From a virus: 42,369 nucleotides of DNA. Below, in pieces: positions 76-42,369 of the stretch (position 1 is the stretch's first letter; each line of letters starts with the position of its first letter). A program made the translations under genes and the position numbers. Location of the stretch: IMG/VR virus record IMGVR_UViG_3300045988_054763, one strand, 5' to 3'. The notes under the pieces are model-generated. The model did no database searches and was not told the DNA's origin. It saw nothing but the letters and a program-made list of their open reading frames with translations.

Positions 76-120
76 CTTGGCTACGGTCGGGTTCTGGATT
101 ACATCGGAGTGAGGTATTGA
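1..120 (+). CDS. 3' end of PAPS-reductase-like gene exon 2 (continues from 42220-42369 through the circular junction)
   Basis: Frame 1 is open from base 1 (KHYEFCIGGGEFDPADGLWKPNEKGLGYGRVLDYIGVRY*) to TGA at 118-120. Bases 1-75 duplicate 42295-42369 in the same frame. Confidence 0.75.
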   Translation, partial: KHYEFCIGGGEFDPADGLWKPNEKGLGYGRVLDYIGVRY

Positions 121-2871: not shown

Positions 2872-3649
2872 CAATTTTCAGAATTTTAAGCGATACAATA
2901 TTCCAAAAGCGCAGCTTGTAATTGCGGATATCCCCTATAACATCGGCGTGGACGCCTATGCAAGCAATCCGATGTGGTACAACGGCGGAGATAACAAAAA
3001 CGGAGAAAGCAATCTTGCAAAGCAGAGTTTTTTCCACACGGACGGAACATTCAAAATTGCGGAGTATATGCACTTCTGTAATCGTATGCTGCGCAAGGAA
3101 CCGAAGGAAAAGGGGAAGGCTCCGGCAATGATCGTGTTTTGCGCGTTTGAGCAGATGCAGACCGTGATCGAATACGGAAAGCGCTACGGGTTCATGAAAA
3201 GCTATCCGCTGTTCTTCTGCAAAAACTATTCCGCACAAGTGCTTAAAGCCAACATGAAAATAGTAGGCGCAACGGAATTTGCGGTCGTCCTCTACCGGGA
3301 CAAGTTGCCGAAATTCCGTAACGTTGGTTCGGATGGTGAGCGGCACATGGTATTTGATTGGTTCGCGTGGGAGAGGGACAAACGCAGTCAATATCCAAAG
3401 GTGCATCCGACACAAAAGCCGGTTGCGGTATTGAAAAAGCTGATCTCCGTGTTTACAGACCCCGACGATGTTGTGATCGACCCGTGCGCGGGAAGCGGCT
3501 CTACGCTTCGCGCAGCTTATGAGATGGGGCGTAACGCCTATGGGTTTGAGGTGGACAAGGGGTTTTACGAGGCAGCGAAAGAAAAGATGCTTGCTCCCTT
3601 GTTTGCGAAGCCTGAATTTGAGCAGATCGGAATGGGGGATGTGGTATGA
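2849..3649 (+). CDS. DNA methyltransferase, N6-adenine/N4-cytosine, beta-class motif order
   Basis: Catalytic motif ADIPYNIG (DPPY-like) lies upstream of the AdoMet motif VIDPCAGSGSTLRAA. ATG follows ggaggaggtg. Confidence 0.8.
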   Translation: MKCELYHDNFQNFKRYNIPKAQLVIADIPYNIGVDAYASNPMWYNGGDNKNGESNLAKQSFFHTDGTFKIAEYMHFCNRMLRKEPKEKGKAPAMIVFCAFEQMQTVIEYGKRYGFMKSYPLFFCKNYSAQVLKANMKIVGATEFAVVLYRDKLPKFRNVGSDGERHMVFDWFAWERDKRSQYPKVHPTQKPVAVLKKLISVFTDPDDVVIDPCAGSGSTLRAAYEMGRNAYGFEVDKGFYEAAKEKMLAPLFAKPEFEQIGMGDVV

Positions 3650-3972: not shown

Positions 3973-4538
3973 CATCTGTTTCCTCCTCCCTTGATAGCCC
4001 GCCCTTCGGGGCGGGCGGTTGAGGGCAAAAATGACAGGACTTCCCGCACCTCTCAACGATGTGGTCCAGGGGAGACATATACGGGCAAATGTACCAAGGT
4101 GGCGACGCGGTCTCCAAAACCGTGTGCGGTGGGTTCGATTCCCAACTGTCCGTGCCAGAGGCCGGGTAGCTCCCGGATGATGTGAGAGTACGCAGAACGC
4201 CTCACAGAGAATGACAATGCCTGCTGAAAACTGCGCGTGGGGATGCGTCCTCCTTGCCGTTACTGATGAAAGCGCTTGAAATGCTTGCGGGGCCTCAAGC
4301 GGGCATGAGCGTGTGACAATCTAAGCGGGAACTGCACATACGCGGCGTGCAGAAGCAGAAGCGAAAGCAATGGCTATAGGCAACATTGCGGACGTGTGGC
4401 GGCTCAATACCGCCTCGCCGCTCCAAGCGGTTTAGATGGAAGATCTATTCTGAGCATCAAGTGTATGCCCTTCGGGGCGGGTAAAGTCTGCTATGTAAGG
4501 CCAAGGGGCGGGGGCTGGTAGCAAATAGGGCGGGGCAT
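3973..4538 (+). ncRNA. Candidate large structured non-coding RNA region (ORF-free, hairpin-dense)
   Basis: No credible ORF on either strand. Many local hairpins, for example cccgccc-ttcg-gggcggg, ctgcac..gtgcag, gcaatg..cattgc and ggcgg..ccgcc. Confidence 0.35.
4081..4157 (+). tRNA. tRNA-like element, possibly a degenerate tRNA-Trp(CCA)
   Basis: It has a 7-bp acceptor stem (acgggca/tgtccgt), an anticodon arm gcggt-CTCCAAA-accgt, a T-loop GGTTCGATTCC and an encoded CCA, 77 nt in all. However, no D-stem can be drawn and the T-stem has an extra base. Confidence 0.3.
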
Positions 4539-29693: not shown

Positions 29694-29733
29694 GGCATAG
29701 TTTACCTTTGGGAACACGAAGGTCAAATATGCC
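29694..29733. other. Candidate attP core for the serine integrase
   Basis: An imperfect inverted repeat in a 19-2-19 layout: ggcatagtttacctttggg AA cacgaaggtcaaatatgcc, with 15 of 19 arm positions complementary. It abuts the int stop codon. Confidence 0.4.
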
Positions 29734-31034
29734 TAACGTGGCGTTACAAAAAACGCGCCGTCGTCATCTGCGTCAATTCTCCGAATAAAGCGCGTCCAGA
29801 ATTCCTTTTTCTCTTCCCGGGAGTAAGTGTCATATTCAGCAAGTCCATTTCGCAGCGCGTCAAGGTTTGTCTTCGGCTTTTCCTCTACCGCTTCAAGGGA
29901 TTTTTTCAAGCTCGCATACTCCCGCTTGTATTCGTCCAACTCGATCAAATCATTCAGATAAAGCGTTTTTAGCTTGCTCATTTTCTTTCGTATCGCGTCC
30001 GCGCTTTGCGTGGCCTTTTTTTCTGCCTTTTTATAATAGCGATTATTTCGCTCAGCAATCCCCTCAAGCTCATGCAATAAATAATCTTCCAGCGCGTCTT
30101 CGCGAATCCTCTTTTTGTGTTGGCACGCGGAGTTGTCAAGCATTCGCGTCCGGCATCGGTAGTAGGTATAAATCTGCTTTGCCGTTTCCGACTGCATCGT
30201 TTTCCCACACTCTTTGCAATGTAATAAGCCGGAGAACAGATAAACGCGATCTGTCTCAACTCCTGCGCAGCGCTGCGACCGCTGGCGGAGGATATCATTT
30301 ACAATGTCAAAATCCTGCTTGCTTATTAGTGCGGGGCAAGCGTTTTCAATACCGTACACCTCGCCGATATAAAGCCGGTTGCGGAAATAGTTTACATATT
30401 TGGTATATGCCCGGTCAATCTTCCACGTCTCGAGCATATACTTTTTTACGCCAAGCACGCTTTGCAGTCTGATGTACGCCGCAAACATATCTCGTGCGGC
30501 ATCTACCGTGCCGTTATCAATCTGGTATTGCCTGTCCTTGACGATATACCCTAAAGGCGCTTTTGACCCTGCCGGTTGGCCTTTTGCCCGTTTGCCGTCG
30601 TTGATAAATTTGATTCGCTCGCTTGTGCGGTCGGCCTCGTCCTGCGCGACGGAAAGCATAATGTTGACCTTTAATCTCCCGGACGCGGTGCGCGTCTCGT
30701 AGTCCTCTTCCGTCGCTTGCCACGTCACGCCGTATTTGTCCAGCTGCGTCTGTACATCGTAGTACCCGGCAACGTTTCGAAACCAGCGATCGAGCTTGAT
30801 AAACAAGATCGTGTCTACCGTCCCTGCTTTGCAATCGTCCAGCAGACGCAGAAGCGCAGGACGCTTTTTATACGGCTTTCGCGCGGAGATGCCAGCGTCC
30901 TCATATATGCCCACCACGGTCATTTTATTCGCTTTTGCGTACCTTGTCAGCGTGTCCCGTTGCTCTTGCAGGGACAAGCCATGCCGCGCCTGCTCCTCGC
31001 TCGAGACGCGGATATACAATGCCACTCTCATCAT
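29733..31034 (-). CDS. int: Large serine recombinase (integrase)
   Basis: Resolvase N-terminus MMRVALYIRVSSEEQ...GLSLQEQ, a recombinase domain, and a zinc ribbon LLHCKECGKTM...YYRC. Confidence 0.9.
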   Translation of the reverse strand: MMRVALYIRVSSEEQARHGLSLQEQRDTLTRYAKANKMTVVGIYEDAGISARKPYKKRPALLRLLDDCKAGTVDTILFIKLDRWFRNVAGYYDVQTQLDKYGVTWQATEEDYETRTASGRLKVNIMLSVAQDEADRTSERIKFINDGKRAKGQPAGSKAPLGYIVKDRQYQIDNGTVDAARDMFAAYIRLQSVLGVKKYMLETWKIDRAYTKYVNYFRNRLYIGEVYGIENACPALISKQDFDIVNDILRQRSQRCAGVETDRVYLFSGLLHCKECGKTMQSETAKQIYTYYRCRTRMLDNSACQHKKRIREDALEDYLLHELEGIAERNNRYYKKAEKKATQSADAIRKKMSKLKTLYLNDLIELDEYKREYASLKKSLEAVEEKPKTNLDALRNGLAEYDTYSREEKKEFWTRFIRRIDADDDGAFFVTPR

Positions 31035-31447
31035 AGCCCCCTCCAAAATCCGTAATCTACACAATGAAAATCAATGTACACACACCACGCAGCGAGAAGA
31101 GCGATAATAACAAACATTACAGCAATCGCGCCGTTGCGGATATGGACACCGCGCCGCATGATCTCAATGGTATCGGCCTTTGCGTCAACATGGCGTTCCA
31201 GCTCATCGTTGCGCGCTTGCAAAGTTTCCTCGGTCGGCGTCAGGTGTTCGGAAATCCCGAACGCCTCATCAAGCGATATTCCAAGCGCTTTGCAGATCGG
31301 CGCAACGGTGTAGATCGACGGAGCTTTAGAAAACTTGGAAAAGAAGTTCTGCACGGTGGACAGCGGAACGCCGGAAACGTCGGAAATTTCCTGATAGGTC
31401 AGTTTCAATTCTTCTTTACGGATTCTACACACTTCTTGAATATTCAT
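31031..31447 (-). CDS. XRE-family HTH protein with a C-terminal transmembrane anchor
   Basis: HTH KLTYQEISDVSGVPLSTVQNFFS and TM segment GAIAVMFVIIALLAAWCVYI. Its stop overlaps the int start (cTATGATG). Confidence 0.7.
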   Translation of the reverse strand: MNIQEVCRIRKEELKLTYQEISDVSGVPLSTVQNFFSKFSKAPSIYTVAPICKALGISLDEAFGISEHLTPTEETLQARNDELERHVDAKADTIEIMRRGVHIRNGAIAVMFVIIALLAAWCVYIDFHCVDYGFWRGL

Positions 31448-39355: not shown

Positions 39356-40600
39356 ATGAAACTCTTGATTGGCGGAAGCCCTTGCACGCACTGGAGTATC
39401 GCGCAGACCAAGAACCGCGAGACCGAGGCCAGCGGCATCGGCTGGGAGCTATTTTTAAACTACCGCATCGCCCGCGACAAGTACCAGCCGGACTATTTTC
39501 TCTACGAGAACAACAAATCCATGTCGCCCGCTATCCGGACGCAAATCACGGCGGAGCTGGGCGTGGAACCCGTGCTTATCAACTCCGCGCTGGTAAGCGC
39601 ACAAAACCGCCAGCGCCTGTATTGGGTGGGCAGACGGAACCCGGACGGCACATACAGCCAGGTGCCGGTGGAGCAGCCGGAGGACAGGGGTATTCTGCTG
39701 CGGGATATTTTGGAGACCGGCTTCCCGCTGCGCGAGAAGAGCTATGCGCTCCAAACAGGACACAGTGCGACGGCGGAGGATGCCGTTGCACGCAGGCAGC
39801 GGAACGCGGTAGCGGAGCCTGTTGCCATTAAGCCGCTGTCTGAGCGGGAAATGGATTACATGGTTGGTGAGCATGGCAAATACTCCGACCGTTGGACATA
39901 TCTGCAAAAGCCAGGAGAGGCAGACAAAGCGCTTTGCATCACCGCTAATGTACATCGCGGCGTTCCGTATAACATTTGCGCAGAGCCTGTACGAATCGGG
40001 ACCATCGAGAATGACGCGAAGAACCCGGACAATGACAGCCAGCAATACCGCGTCTATTCGCCGGACGGAAAGAGCGTGACCCTCTGCGGGAATGGCGGAG
40101 GCTTGGGAGCCAAGACGGGCCTTTATGCAACGCCGGTCGGCGGCCCGGATGGGAAAGCGTGGCCCGTATACAAAGTCCGCGACGGCTTTATCGCCATTAA
40201 AGGCAAGCGATACCCGATTAAACTGCGAGACGGCTTTTACATCATCCGCAAGCTGACGGTCCGCGAGTGTATGCGCCTCCAGACCGTGCCAGAGGAGTAT
40301 GTTTTCCCGGTGAGCAACAGCCAAGCCTACAAGATGCTGGGCAACGGCTGGACGGTGGACGTGATCGCCCACATTATGAGCCATTTTGAAGGGCTGACGA
40401 AAGAACCGGTGAAAGTGCTATCGATGTACGACGGTATGAGCTGCGGACATATCGCGCTGGACAAGCTGGGCGCGGAGATCGCCGCCTACTATGCGACCGA
40501 GATCGACAAGTACGCCATCCAGACCACGCAGCACAATTTCCCCGAGACCATCCAGCTTGGCGACGCATTTCAGGTGAGAGGGGAAGGGTGGACGCTATGA
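39356..40600 (+). CDS. DNA (cytosine-5) methyltransferase with circularly permuted motif order
   Basis: It starts at motif IV (MKLLIGGSPCTHWS), followed by ENNKSM (VI), SAQNRQRLYW (VIII), RKLTVRECMRLQTVPEEY (IX) and LGNGWTVDVIAHI (X). Only after these come motif I-III-like VKVLSMYDGMSCGHIALDKLG, YYATEID and LGDAF. Confidence 0.75.
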   Translation: MKLLIGGSPCTHWSIAQTKNRETEASGIGWELFLNYRIARDKYQPDYFLYENNKSMSPAIRTQITAELGVEPVLINSALVSAQNRQRLYWVGRRNPDGTYSQVPVEQPEDRGILLRDILETGFPLREKSYALQTGHSATAEDAVARRQRNAVAEPVAIKPLSEREMDYMVGEHGKYSDRWTYLQKPGEADKALCITANVHRGVPYNICAEPVRIGTIENDAKNPDNDSQQYRVYSPDGKSVTLCGNGGGLGAKTGLYATPVGGPDGKAWPVYKVRDGFIAIKGKRYPIKLRDGFYIIRKLTVRECMRLQTVPEEYVFPVSNSQAYKMLGNGWTVDVIAHIMSHFEGLTKEPVKVLSMYDGMSCGHIALDKLGAEIAAYYATEIDKYAIQTTQHNFPETIQLGDAFQVRGEGWTL

Positions 40601-41487
40601 GCCTTTCCGGTTACACCAACACGCCGATCCTGCCCGAGAAAGCAAAAGAGCTGATGTCCCTTGACGCCGAGGACAAGGAGATCATCACCTACGGCAAGAT
40701 CGAGGAGTGGTTCACAGCATGGGACGGGAAAGTCTATGTGAGCTTTTCCGGCGGCAAGGATTCAACCGTGCTGGCTTACCTTGCCGCAAACTGGCTCTCA
40801 CATTTCCGCACGCCGCCGTGGCCGCTGGACCTCGTATTTGTCAATACGGGGCTGGAATATCCAGAAGTTCAGAAGTTCGTAAACGAATATACGGACTGGC
40901 TGCGGAGGGAGTTTCCCCGTGTGACCGTCAACCTACACCGTCGGCGTCCGAAGATGAACATTCGGCAGGTGGTGCGGAAGTACGGGTATAGCATCGTGAG
41001 CAAAGAAGTGTCCGCATACGTAGGAAATGCTCGAATCAATCCAGATGGGAAATCGGCACAGCGTTTACGCGGGGAATACCTCGATAAAAATGGAGAAAAA
41101 TCCCCGTACAACTGCGAAAAGTGGGGGGATTTAGTTCATGCGCCGTTTCTCGTGTCGGATTCATGCTGCAAGGTGATGAAAAAGGGACCCATGCACAAGT
41201 TCGAGACCAAAACAGGGTTCCACCCCATGACAGCGTTGATGGCGGAAGAAAGTCGGCTGCGCATGCTGAAATGGCAACGCACAGGCTGCAACGCCTTTGA
41301 GGGCAAGCACCCGAGGGGAAAGCCCATGAGCTTTTGGGCGGAGCAGGACGTACTACGGTTTATCGTAGATCGGCAAATCCCTATCGTTAGCGTGTACGGC
41401 GATATCGTAGCCAGTGACGGCGAGAACGACTATGCGAAAACGCTGATCGACTGCAAGCTGCACTGCACGGGCTGCCAGAGAACAGGT
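40597..41487 (+). CDS. PAPS-reductase-like (PP-loop ATPase) protein, exon 1
   Basis: The PP-loop VYVSFSGGKDSTVLAYL. ATGA overlap with the methyltransferase stop. The unspliced frame stops at 41506-08. Confidence 0.8.
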
Positions 41488-41676
41488 CAGAGTATAACGG
41501 CCGCTTGATGGGGCGACTCATCATGTAATAACAGTGTGAACCCTATTACTCAGGGGTGTGCCGCCACAAGGCGGGGCTAACGGGGAAGCCCTAACGTAAA
41601 GACGAGGGTAATCCCGTGCTGGGCTAATCGTGATAGCGTATTTTGTGTTTATAAATTTGAGGTCTTGATTTGAGGT

Positions 41677-42051
41677 TTATGGATTTTTTAATTCTGTAGA
41701 ACACGGTTTTGTGATGCCAAATTTATCACAAAGCTCCTGCATCGGCATTTGAGCATTATAAGCATCAACGATGGCGGAAATGTTTAGATCGTCGCGGTTA
41801 TTGATGGGTACACGGTGCTTTCGCGAGCCAGCTTTATCTAAAGCGCGACAAACGGTGTATGTGTGGCATCCAAGAGATTTGTCTCTGCCGTATTTGGTTA
41901 CGGCATTGTAAAGTTTGTAGTTACGCCTGAGCTTTGCGGTGCTGGGCTTCATGTGAACCATAAATCTTTCGTGTACAGCCATTGTCGTTTGCCCGATGTA
42001 AACTTTATCGTTTACCGTGTTTTTGATGATGTAAATAGAACCTGTACGCAT
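41677..42051 (-). CDS. GIY-YIG homing-endonuclease-like protein, truncated catalytic domain plus HTH
   Basis: SIYIIKNTVNDKVYIGQT (GIY...YIG) and HERF (Arg) are present, but the downstream catalytic Glu region is absent. C-terminal MPMQELCDKFGITKP is an HTH. RBS gaggtga. Confidence 0.7.
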   Translation of the reverse strand: MRTGSIYIIKNTVNDKVYIGQTTMAVHERFMVHMKPSTAKLRRNYKLYNAVTKYGRDKSLGCHTYTVCRALDKAGSRKHRVPINNRDDLNISAIVDAYNAQMPMQELCDKFGITKPCSTELKNP

Positions 42052-42068
42052 ATTATCACCTCAATAAT

Positions 42069-42097
42069 ATTATACACCAAAGGCGCAAAAAGCGCAA
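42069..42097 (-). promoter_or_regulatory. Promoter for the antisense GIY-YIG gene
   Basis: On the minus strand: TTGCGC, a 17-nt spacer, then TATAAT, followed by gaggtgataatATG. Confidence 0.5.
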
Positions 42098-42219
42098 GTT
42101 CAGTGTAACGACTATGGGGGTTGCCCCAGTAGGCCAGAGGATGAGTTGCTGGTCGAAGCGCACTGCATCTCATTGAGATGAAGAGATAGTCTGGGCCATT
42201 GGAAACAATGGAATAACTG

Positions 42220-42369
42220 TGTATGTTTTGCGCGTTTGGGGCGCATCTCGAAAAGGGAGAAAACCGGTTTGAGCGCATGAAACACACGCACCCAAAGCAC
42301 TATGAGTTTTGCATCGGCGGCGGGGAGTTTGATCCCGCGGATGGGCTATGGAAACCCAACGAAAAGGGA
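42220..42369 (+). CDS. PAPS-reductase-like protein, exon 2 (continues at 76-120 through the circular junction)
   Basis: CMFCAFGAHLEKGENRFERMKHTHPKHYEFCIGGGEF... is in frame with exon 1 and preceded by an in-frame TAA at 42214-16. Confidence 0.7.
42295..42369. repeat. Terminal direct repeat, right copy (identical to 1-75)
   Basis: Exact 75-nt identity with the window start. Confidence 0.95.

Follow-up and report, generated by a model that had tools for sequence, protein, structure and literature searches.

Evidence for an IA2-like group I intron, with an antisense endonuclease gene, in a phosphoadenosine phosphosulfate reductase-like gene of a gut phage

The virus record IMGVR_UViG_3300045988_054763 of IMG/VR, whose whole stretch of 42,369 nucleotides (nt) we call the window, contains near its end a gene for a phosphoadenosine phosphosulfate (PAPS) reductase-like protein that is split in two by 732 nt. 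An earlier note, made from the letters of the window, had proposed that a group I intron interrupts this gene, and the boundaries, the paired regions P4, P5, P7 and P9, the exon junction and the comparative data all agree with it. The insert is very probably a genuine mobile group I intron of IA2-like type, the self-splicing and homing steps being those that we infer. The three parts of the locus are as follows.

40597-41487, + strand: exon 1 of the PAPS-reductase-like gene, 297 codons from the ATG at 40597 (alternative GTG start at 40588)
41488-42219, + strand: group I intron of 732 nt (terminal G42219; in-frame stop at 41506-08)
42220-42369, + strand: exon 2, first 50 codons (resumes at window 76-117, stop at 118-120)

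The exon 1 protein ends as ...CKLHCTGCQRTG at 41487, with the codons ACA GGT and a U as the final exon base (T41487). The frame then continues as QSITAA into a TGA at 41506-41508, so the stop 21 nt into the insert had been read correctly. From 42220 the translation is CMFCAFGAHLEKGENRFERMKHTHPKHYEFC..., which the earlier note had placed directly after an in-frame TAA; the TAA is there (42214-16), but one codon (CTG) intervenes before exon 2. The initial 75 nt of the window are identical to its final 75 nt (1-75 = 42295-42369), and therefore the contig is a circular, or circularly assembled, phage genome of about 42.3 kb. Because it is circular, exon 2 wraps to the stop at 118-120, and the conceptual spliced product has 361 amino acids (aa), from 297 plus 64 codons. 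This is the size that had been predicted, although it is reached only by way of the circular contig.

Regarding the host gene, exon 1 matches the Pfam family PAPS_reduct (PF01507) with 50.1 bits against a cut-off of 22.5 and contains the SGGKDS PP-loop, and the gene belongs to phrog_424, 'phosphoadenosine phosphosulfate reductase' (E = 4.9e-41). A full-length uninterrupted homologue of 358 aa (L003) likewise carries the PAPS_reduct/PP-loop domain and falls in phrog_424. No solved relative was detectable when the PDB sequences were searched with the host protein.

The insertion site lies inside the codons for a conserved Cys cluster, CTGCQRTG/CMFC (the slash marks the site). In a human-faecal phage scaffold (MT835537.1, here L001) the gene is uninterrupted and colinear with the window exons at the nucleotide level: its base 3186 corresponds to window 41487 and its base 3187 to window 42220, and it reads ...CKLHCTGCQRTGCMFCGFGSHLEKG... 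there. Furthermore, an IMG/VR scan gave 80 homologues with 73-93% aa identity, each matching as a single unbroken stretch. The junction L[HR]CTGC[QR]R[TS]GC[MV]FC is read through in 81 of the 81 intron-less homologues (these 80 plus L001). Thus, joining U41487 to U42220 rebuilds the Cys cluster as had been proposed, removal of the insert restores a colinear host gene product, and the expected colinearity with uninterrupted homologues holds in every case and base for base in L001. This colinearity identifies 41488-42219 as an insertion within one gene.

The boundaries also follow the rule for group I introns that the earlier note had invoked, with T41487 before the insert and G42219 as the last intron base. 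The 5' splice site would be held by P1 in one of two registers, namely CAGGU 41483-87 with GCUUG 41503-07, or GGU/C 41485-88 with GGCC 41499-502, the latter being the one chosen by the minimum-free-energy fold; U41487 faces a G in either register. A candidate for P10 pairs GUAUA 41492-96 with UGUAU 42220-24 of exon 2. The predicted ligated-exon junction reads ...GAACAGGU joined to UGUAUGUUUUGC.

The exon sequence next to the insertion separates the two kinds of alleles. Each of the nine intron-bearing alleles has the flank ACAGGT and not one of the 81 intron-less alleles does; a T at position -1 occurs in 9/9 versus 1/81. A search of IMG/VR returned no intron-less allele with the intron-type flank ACAGGT/TG. 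This pattern fits both the requirement for a U·G pair in P1 and co-conversion during homing.

Within the insert we could assign the following elements (P, paired regions; J, joining segments), where L198 is another copy of the intron at the same site.

41483-41507, + strand: P1 and internal guide sequence (direct reading; minimum-free-energy fold)
41507-41522, + strand: P2 hairpin GAUGGG-GCGA-CUCAUC with a GNRA loop (one G·U pair becomes G-C in L198)
41532-41538, + strand: P3 5' strand, CAGUGUG (partner 42159-42165)
41541-41574, + strand: two-hairpin insertion between P3 and P4 (subfamily-specific; separator GUGUG)
41580-41617, + strand: P4 (ACGGGG/UCCCGU) around P5 (CCCU/AGGG), from homology and covariation
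41618-42104, + strand: P6, GCUG 41618-21 with CAGU 42101-04; its loop contains an endonuclease gene
42105-42115, + strand: J6/7, GUAAC 42105-09, and P7 5' strand, GACUAU 42110-15
42116-42154, + strand: P7.1 (GGGG-GUUG-CCCC) and P7.2 (GGCCAG...CUGGUC), linked by an invariant AGUA
42159-42165, + strand: P3 3' strand, CGCACUG (partner 41532-41538)
42167-42191, + strand: P8 (AUCUC-AUU-GAGAU, within 42167-79), J8/7 GAAGAG and P7 3' strand, AUAGUC 42186-91
42196-42219, + strand: P9 hairpin CCAUUG-GAAA-CAAUGG (42196-42211), then AAUAACUG, ending at G42219

Several of the core strings had been recognised before. Those of P7 are exactly where the earlier note had them (GTTCAGTGTAACGACTAT at 42098-42115 and AAGAGATAGTC at 42181-42191), the P5 motifs are GCCCT 41588-92 and AGGGT 41605-09 (GCCCU/AGGGU), and the GAAA-capped hairpin before the 3' splice site is P9. 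Both P4 motifs are present, AACGGGGAA at 41579-41587 and AATCCCGT at 41610-41617, but each had been placed one base off. The stretch 42167-42191 aligns with the consensus UGAAGAUAUAGUC of RF00028, the Rfam group I intron model. The two hairpins between P3 and P4, provisionally P3.1 (CCCU-AUUACUC-AGGG) and P3.2 (CCGCC-ACAA-GGCGG), define a subfamily, and both are retained with differing sequences in six other members (L197, L094, L211, L206, L204 and L208), which are introns from unrelated genes.

These six introns served for comparison in a hand-segmented structure table of eight copies of seven intron types, in which 440 of the 443 pairs are standard. The long-range helix P3 has 47/47 standard pairs over the seven types with compensatory changes at four positions; its variants are CAGUGUG/CGCACUG, CCUUGUG/CGCAAGG, CCCGGUG/CGCCGGG, CUCGGUG/CGCCGAG, CACAUUG/CGGUGUG, CACACC/GGUGUG and UACACC/GGUGUA. 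P4 is compensated from G-C to U-A, P6 covaries (GCC/GGU, GUC/GAU, GCU/AGU, GUG/CAU), P7 reads GAGCA/UGCUC in L206, and compensatory changes are found in P7.2, P8 and P9 as well. When the 3' strands of P3, P4, P6 and P7 were shifted by 1-3 bases, pairing fell from 100% to 18-73%. The long-range compensations are hard to explain otherwise than by these helices.

Other pairings and another alignment were discarded. An alternative P3 through the second GUGUG (GUGUGC/GCGCAC) has only 4 base pairs (bp) in L197 and L094, while CAGUGUG/CGCACUG covaries in all intron types. A helix GUAAUA/UAUUAC around the P3 strand was likewise not adopted: it competes with P3.1, and L094, L206 and L204 do not conserve it. 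Finally, a MAFFT alignment of cores with the open reading frames (ORFs) excised misaligned P3, P3.1 and P8, and was not used for pair counts or a covariance model.

The earlier note had taken a failed covariance-model match as a refutation, and this does not stand. RF00028 indeed gave no match over the whole window at its gathering score; in E-value mode it reached 24.6 bits (E = 6.8e-4), short of the gathering threshold of 50, with an alignment that is convincing only for P7, J8/7, P7' and P9. However, the experimentally known, ORF-bearing Twort terminase intron gave no RF00028 match at E <= 1 either, and the ORF-less subfamily members L197 and L204 gave 33 bits and none, respectively, whereas relatives with neither an ORF nor the P3-P4 insertion score 84-97 bits. 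The threshold is therefore uninformative for the window intron, since a known intron and ORF-less members of the subfamily also miss it. The same limitation is reported for phage introns split by nuclease loops (PMC11878797).

Regarding the relatives, the core had been likened to that of the T4 td intron, whose motifs are present, but the closest relatives among GenBank phages are the introns in the terminase large-subunit gene of Twort-like Staphylococcus phages: blastn gave 93% identity over the 42-nt P4-P5-P4' segment 41579-41620. P7.1/P7.2, a hallmark of subgroup IA, is present and covaries, and by this feature and by sequence the nearest group is phage IA2, so that we call the intron IA2-like. 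The two-hairpin P3-P4 insertion is present in addition; the usual IA2 scheme is not known to include it. A search of GenBank phages with the ORF-less L197 gave no record matching its P3-P3.2 portion.

An 18-nt P5 motif of the intron occurs in more than 120 IMG/VR contigs. Dozens of IMG/VR introns contain the identical 32-nt P4-P5 stretch, and RF00028 scans of eight of them gave 84-97 bits. We surveyed 64 distinct introns with the P5 motif. There were 49 without an ORF, 12 with an ORF on the sense strand, one having an insert without an ORF of at least 100 aa, and two entries that were variants of the window intron, which is thus the sole antisense-ORF intron among them. Within the subfamily, L094 and L211 have a sense-strand HNH-like endonuclease gene in the P8 loop (assigned by eye from the translation) whereas L208 has one of GIY-YIG type, also on the sense strand, in the P6 loop. 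That both the gene and the loop vary in this way indicates independent capture. As a separate observation, L206 contains at about 4160-4330 a second group-I-like core (CGGGGGAA...AAUCCCGAG...GUAACGACUAC...GGUAUAGUC), some 100 nt downstream of the first intron, which may be a tandem intron.

The earlier note had overlooked a GIY-YIG homing-endonuclease gene that lies antisense within the P6 loop, and that in the window is a deletion remnant.

41677-42051, - strand: GIY-YIG homing-endonuclease remnant, 124 aa, within the P6 loop
41707-41710, no strand: T-run of 4, versus 5 in the long form; the loss of 1 nt shifts the frame of the endonuclease C-terminus
41876-41877, no strand: scar of an in-frame 330-nt deletion relative to the 1063-nt form (alignment with L198)
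42056-42097, - strand: putative antisense expression signals, with a Shine-Dalgarno sequence GAGGTGA 42056-62, a -10 element TATAAT 42069-74 and a weak -35 element TTGCGC 42092-97

The remnant matches Pfam GIY-YIG with 27 bits over profile positions 2-42 of 78 and keeps the GIY...YIG motif; of the nuclease domain only the N-terminal half is left, together with a single helix-turn-helix module. The 330-nt deletion removes residues 59-168 and with them the second half of the GIY-YIG domain, and by comparison with I-TevI it would take out the region of the catalytic Glu and Asn. The antisense protein is intact, with 252 aa, in the translated complete copies L198, L205, L215, L216 and L217, and the ORF survey gave a 252-aa antisense ORF in L210. 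The long-form protein of L198 reaches 61.7 bits on NCBIfam TIGR01453 'group I intron endonuclease' (cut-off 56.05), covers positions 2-77 of 78 of Pfam GIY-YIG, thus having the complete catalytic domain that the window ORF lacks, and, besides its helix-turn-helix modules, shows an alignment to 1mk0, the catalytic domain of I-TevI. Judging from these similarities it would be an active homing endonuclease, with the intron-less allele as its presumed target. The putative antisense signals are conserved in the five copies compared. A consensus promoter scan did not call an antisense promoter, and the one proposed here is a candidate read from its motifs. On the minus strand at 41602-41617, just downstream of the end of the long-form antisense ORF, the P4-P5 hairpin has a terminator-like score with a poor T-tract; it might help to terminate the antisense transcript.

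An antisense gene with apparent signals of its own resembles a free-standing gene, and this raises the question of whether an endonuclease cassette simply split the host gene, with no splicing and with two polypeptides, the second starting at ATG 42223. Some endonuclease-split phage genes do make separate polypeptides, and codon 2 of exon 2 is an in-frame ATG. Nevertheless, no convincing ribosome-binding site precedes 42223 and the break interrupts the Cys cluster, which is contiguous. Moreover, the non-coding sequence on both sides of the endonuclease gene, roughly 300 nt, makes up a whole group I core that covaries and is homologous to validated introns, the boundaries obey the U/G rule, and the ACAGGT flank specific to intron-bearing alleles is present. 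We consider such a split gene very unlikely.

Eight further public contigs, which come from several projects, have the intron at the identical site. Six contain complete copies (L198, L205, L210, L215, L216 and L217), each in the 1063-nt form, and two are partial (L203 and L214); relative to this long form, 330 nt and a further 1 nt of the endonuclease gene are missing from the window copy. One of the partial copies, L214 (SFFY01000016.1), is in a contig binned as a 'Bacteroidales bacterium' metagenome-assembled genome, which could be a hint of the host or a misbinned phage contig. An assembly chimera or a chance resemblance might be suspected in a single metagenomic contig, all the more as the 330-nt deletion is in the window copy only. 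As eight independent public contigs share this insert and its site, this explanation has a negligible probability and is effectively refuted for the intron itself; only the deletion is at issue.

Comparing the window with four other alleles, the introns are 95-98% identical whereas the exons are 73-91% identical. A near-identical intron in diverged alleles is a signature of recent horizontal spread by homing. In exon 2, the codon differences between the window and L210 are 22 synonymous and one non-synonymous, and those between the window and L216 are 16 and three. This excess of synonymous changes means that exon 2 is still translated in the exon 1 frame, which argues for efficient splicing.

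The picture is different in the lineage of L198 and L215. There the intron has a live endonuclease, and its host gene lacks the N-terminal PP-loop (SGGKDS) and has a frameshifted exon 2 (L198 5551-6357 and 7400-7519; L215 has the same allele). In this lineage the selfish element outlived its host gene. One could therefore imagine that in the window, too, a real intron is spliced inefficiently, that the gene is effectively a pseudogene and that the element is decaying together with its endonuclease; the window endonuclease gene is already dead and P1 is weak, both of which speak for it. However, all core helices are intact in the window, its differences from the copies with a live endonuclease being confined to loops, joining segments and one G-C that became G·U. 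Furthermore, both exons are open, besides the synonymous excess seen in exon 2 against L210. We judge inefficient splicing to be improbable, and the window intron is probably splicing-competent.

For an efficiently spliced mobile intron the events would be as follows. Transcription would run through the intron, and ribosomes would stop at the in-frame TGA 41506-08, protecting its folding. The intron RNA would fold into P1-P9, and an external guanosine would attack after U41487, whose U·G pair with the internal guide keeps it in place. Exon 1, now free, would in turn attack after G42219, joining U41487 to U42220, and the ligated exons would encode the 361 aa. The intron would have spread among diverged alleles via homing by the 252-aa I-TevI-like GIY-YIG endonuclease, encoded antisense in the P6 loop and apparently provided with its own -10 element and ribosome-binding site. 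The window copy, with its endonuclease disabled by the 330-nt deletion and the frameshift and its ribozyme core intact, would have no autonomous mobility, and it would persist by vertical descent only, or by an endonuclease supplied in trans.

Several points weigh against this interpretation. Splicing is deduced from sequence. P1 has only 4-5 bp, and two registers are possible for it. As the helices were drawn up manually and then counted in the very sequences used to define them, the pairing percentages are inflated, most of all for local hairpins. The P3-P4 insertion of about 35 nt has no counterpart in the textbook core, and we assume that it is compatible with catalysis. The RF00028 score is below the gathering threshold, yet the controls show that the model is blind to this class of introns. 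The 330-nt deletion is seen in a single assembled contig, that of the window, and the decayed host gene of L198 and L215 means that the presence of the intron is no guarantee of a working gene.

With respect to known systems, the Twort-like terminase introns (IA2) share with the window, beyond the P4-P5-P4' identity, P7.1/P7.2, the same R and S elements, a phage protein-coding host gene and an endonuclease ORF in a peripheral loop. They differ in that P3 is followed by AAA and P4 with no hairpins between, in that the ORF (IepA) is on the sense strand and in the host gene. The T4 td intron likewise has a GIY-YIG gene in the P6 loop, similar P, Q, R and S motifs and an early in-frame intron stop, but I-TevI is encoded on the sense strand and there is no blastn match at E <= 1e-5. 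The DNA-binding part of the window-type endonuclease consists of helix-turn-helix modules, while I-TevI has a zinc-finger and linker architecture.

The IA intron of nrdF in the Bacillus cereus group, which has a GIY-YIG endonuclease, presents the same situation of a long and a short form and is a direct precedent: its sister copies differ by the loss of most of the endonuclease gene, with splicing retained (PMC2248736). It is unlike the window intron in being in a bacterial chromosome gene and having a sense-strand ORF. An endonuclease gene antisense to the host transcript is found in the I-DirII intron of the ribosomal DNA (rDNA) of Didymium iridis, where I-DirII has its own promoter (PMC3073962). 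This case is evolutionarily unrelated, with eukaryotic nuclear rDNA, an RNA polymerase II promoter and a spliceosomal intron.

The host gene had also been called unusual. In the literature, of which our coverage was limited so that absence is weak evidence, we met with no earlier case of an intron-bearing PAPS-reductase gene and no description of the P3.1/P3.2 element. We likewise found no phage or bacterial precedent for an intron with an antisense endonuclease, I-DirII being the only one and eukaryotic, an absence that is again weak evidence. Among phage genes, those for terminase and DNA polymerase are established hosts of group I introns. Lysin, structural, recA and psbA genes harbour them too. 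The surprise is thus modest, although calling the gene an unusual host is fair. Group I introns are known to be plastic enough for peripheral insertions and odd endonuclease arrangements, and what sets the window intron apart is its host gene, its antisense endonuclease gene and the covarying two-hairpin P3-P4 insertion of a small subfamily missed by RF00028. It is possible, but in our opinion rather doubtful, that this is an undescribed structural subfamily with a conserved two-hairpin domain in J3/4, invisible to RF00028 even without an ORF, that captured an antisense GIY-YIG gene with its own promoter. If so, the antisense arrangement would keep the translation of the endonuclease apart from the folding of the ribozyme, and antisense transcription could modulate the splicing of the host gene.

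As for the surroundings, the genome is that of a temperate siphovirus-like gut phage, with terminase, portal, major head, tape-measure and serine-integrase genes. Two features consistent with a temperate phage are listed here.

4081-4157, + strand: tRNA-Trp (CCA)
29733-31064, - strand: serine-recombinase integrase gene

The host gene is directly preceded by a C5 cytosine DNA methyltransferase gene (39356-40600, + strand; Pfam DNA_methylase 103.8 bits), whose end overlaps the host-gene start by 4-13 nt. The overlap suggests an operon and is no proof of a role in DNA modification. The earlier guess of a DNA-modification gene is in keeping with the PAPS_reduct/PP-loop domain and the neighbouring methyltransferase, but finds no further evidence.

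For annotation, two apparent gene fragments and a small 'hypothetical' ORF can now be corrected into one gene of 361 aa, a ribozyme and a dead homing-endonuclease gene, and a widespread phage gene (phrog_424) joins the list of intron hosts. Since the Rfam threshold misses the subfamily of the window intron as well as known ORF-bearing phage introns, surveys of gut viromes that are based on it undercount such elements. For ribozyme specialists, the antisense endonuclease and the hairpins inserted between P3 and P4 are oddities of modest weight that can be put to the test. Finally, the nine intron-bearing and 81 empty alleles offer a snapshot of the homing cycle, with invasion, near-identical spread into diverged alleles, decay of the endonuclease in the window copy and decay of the host gene in another lineage.

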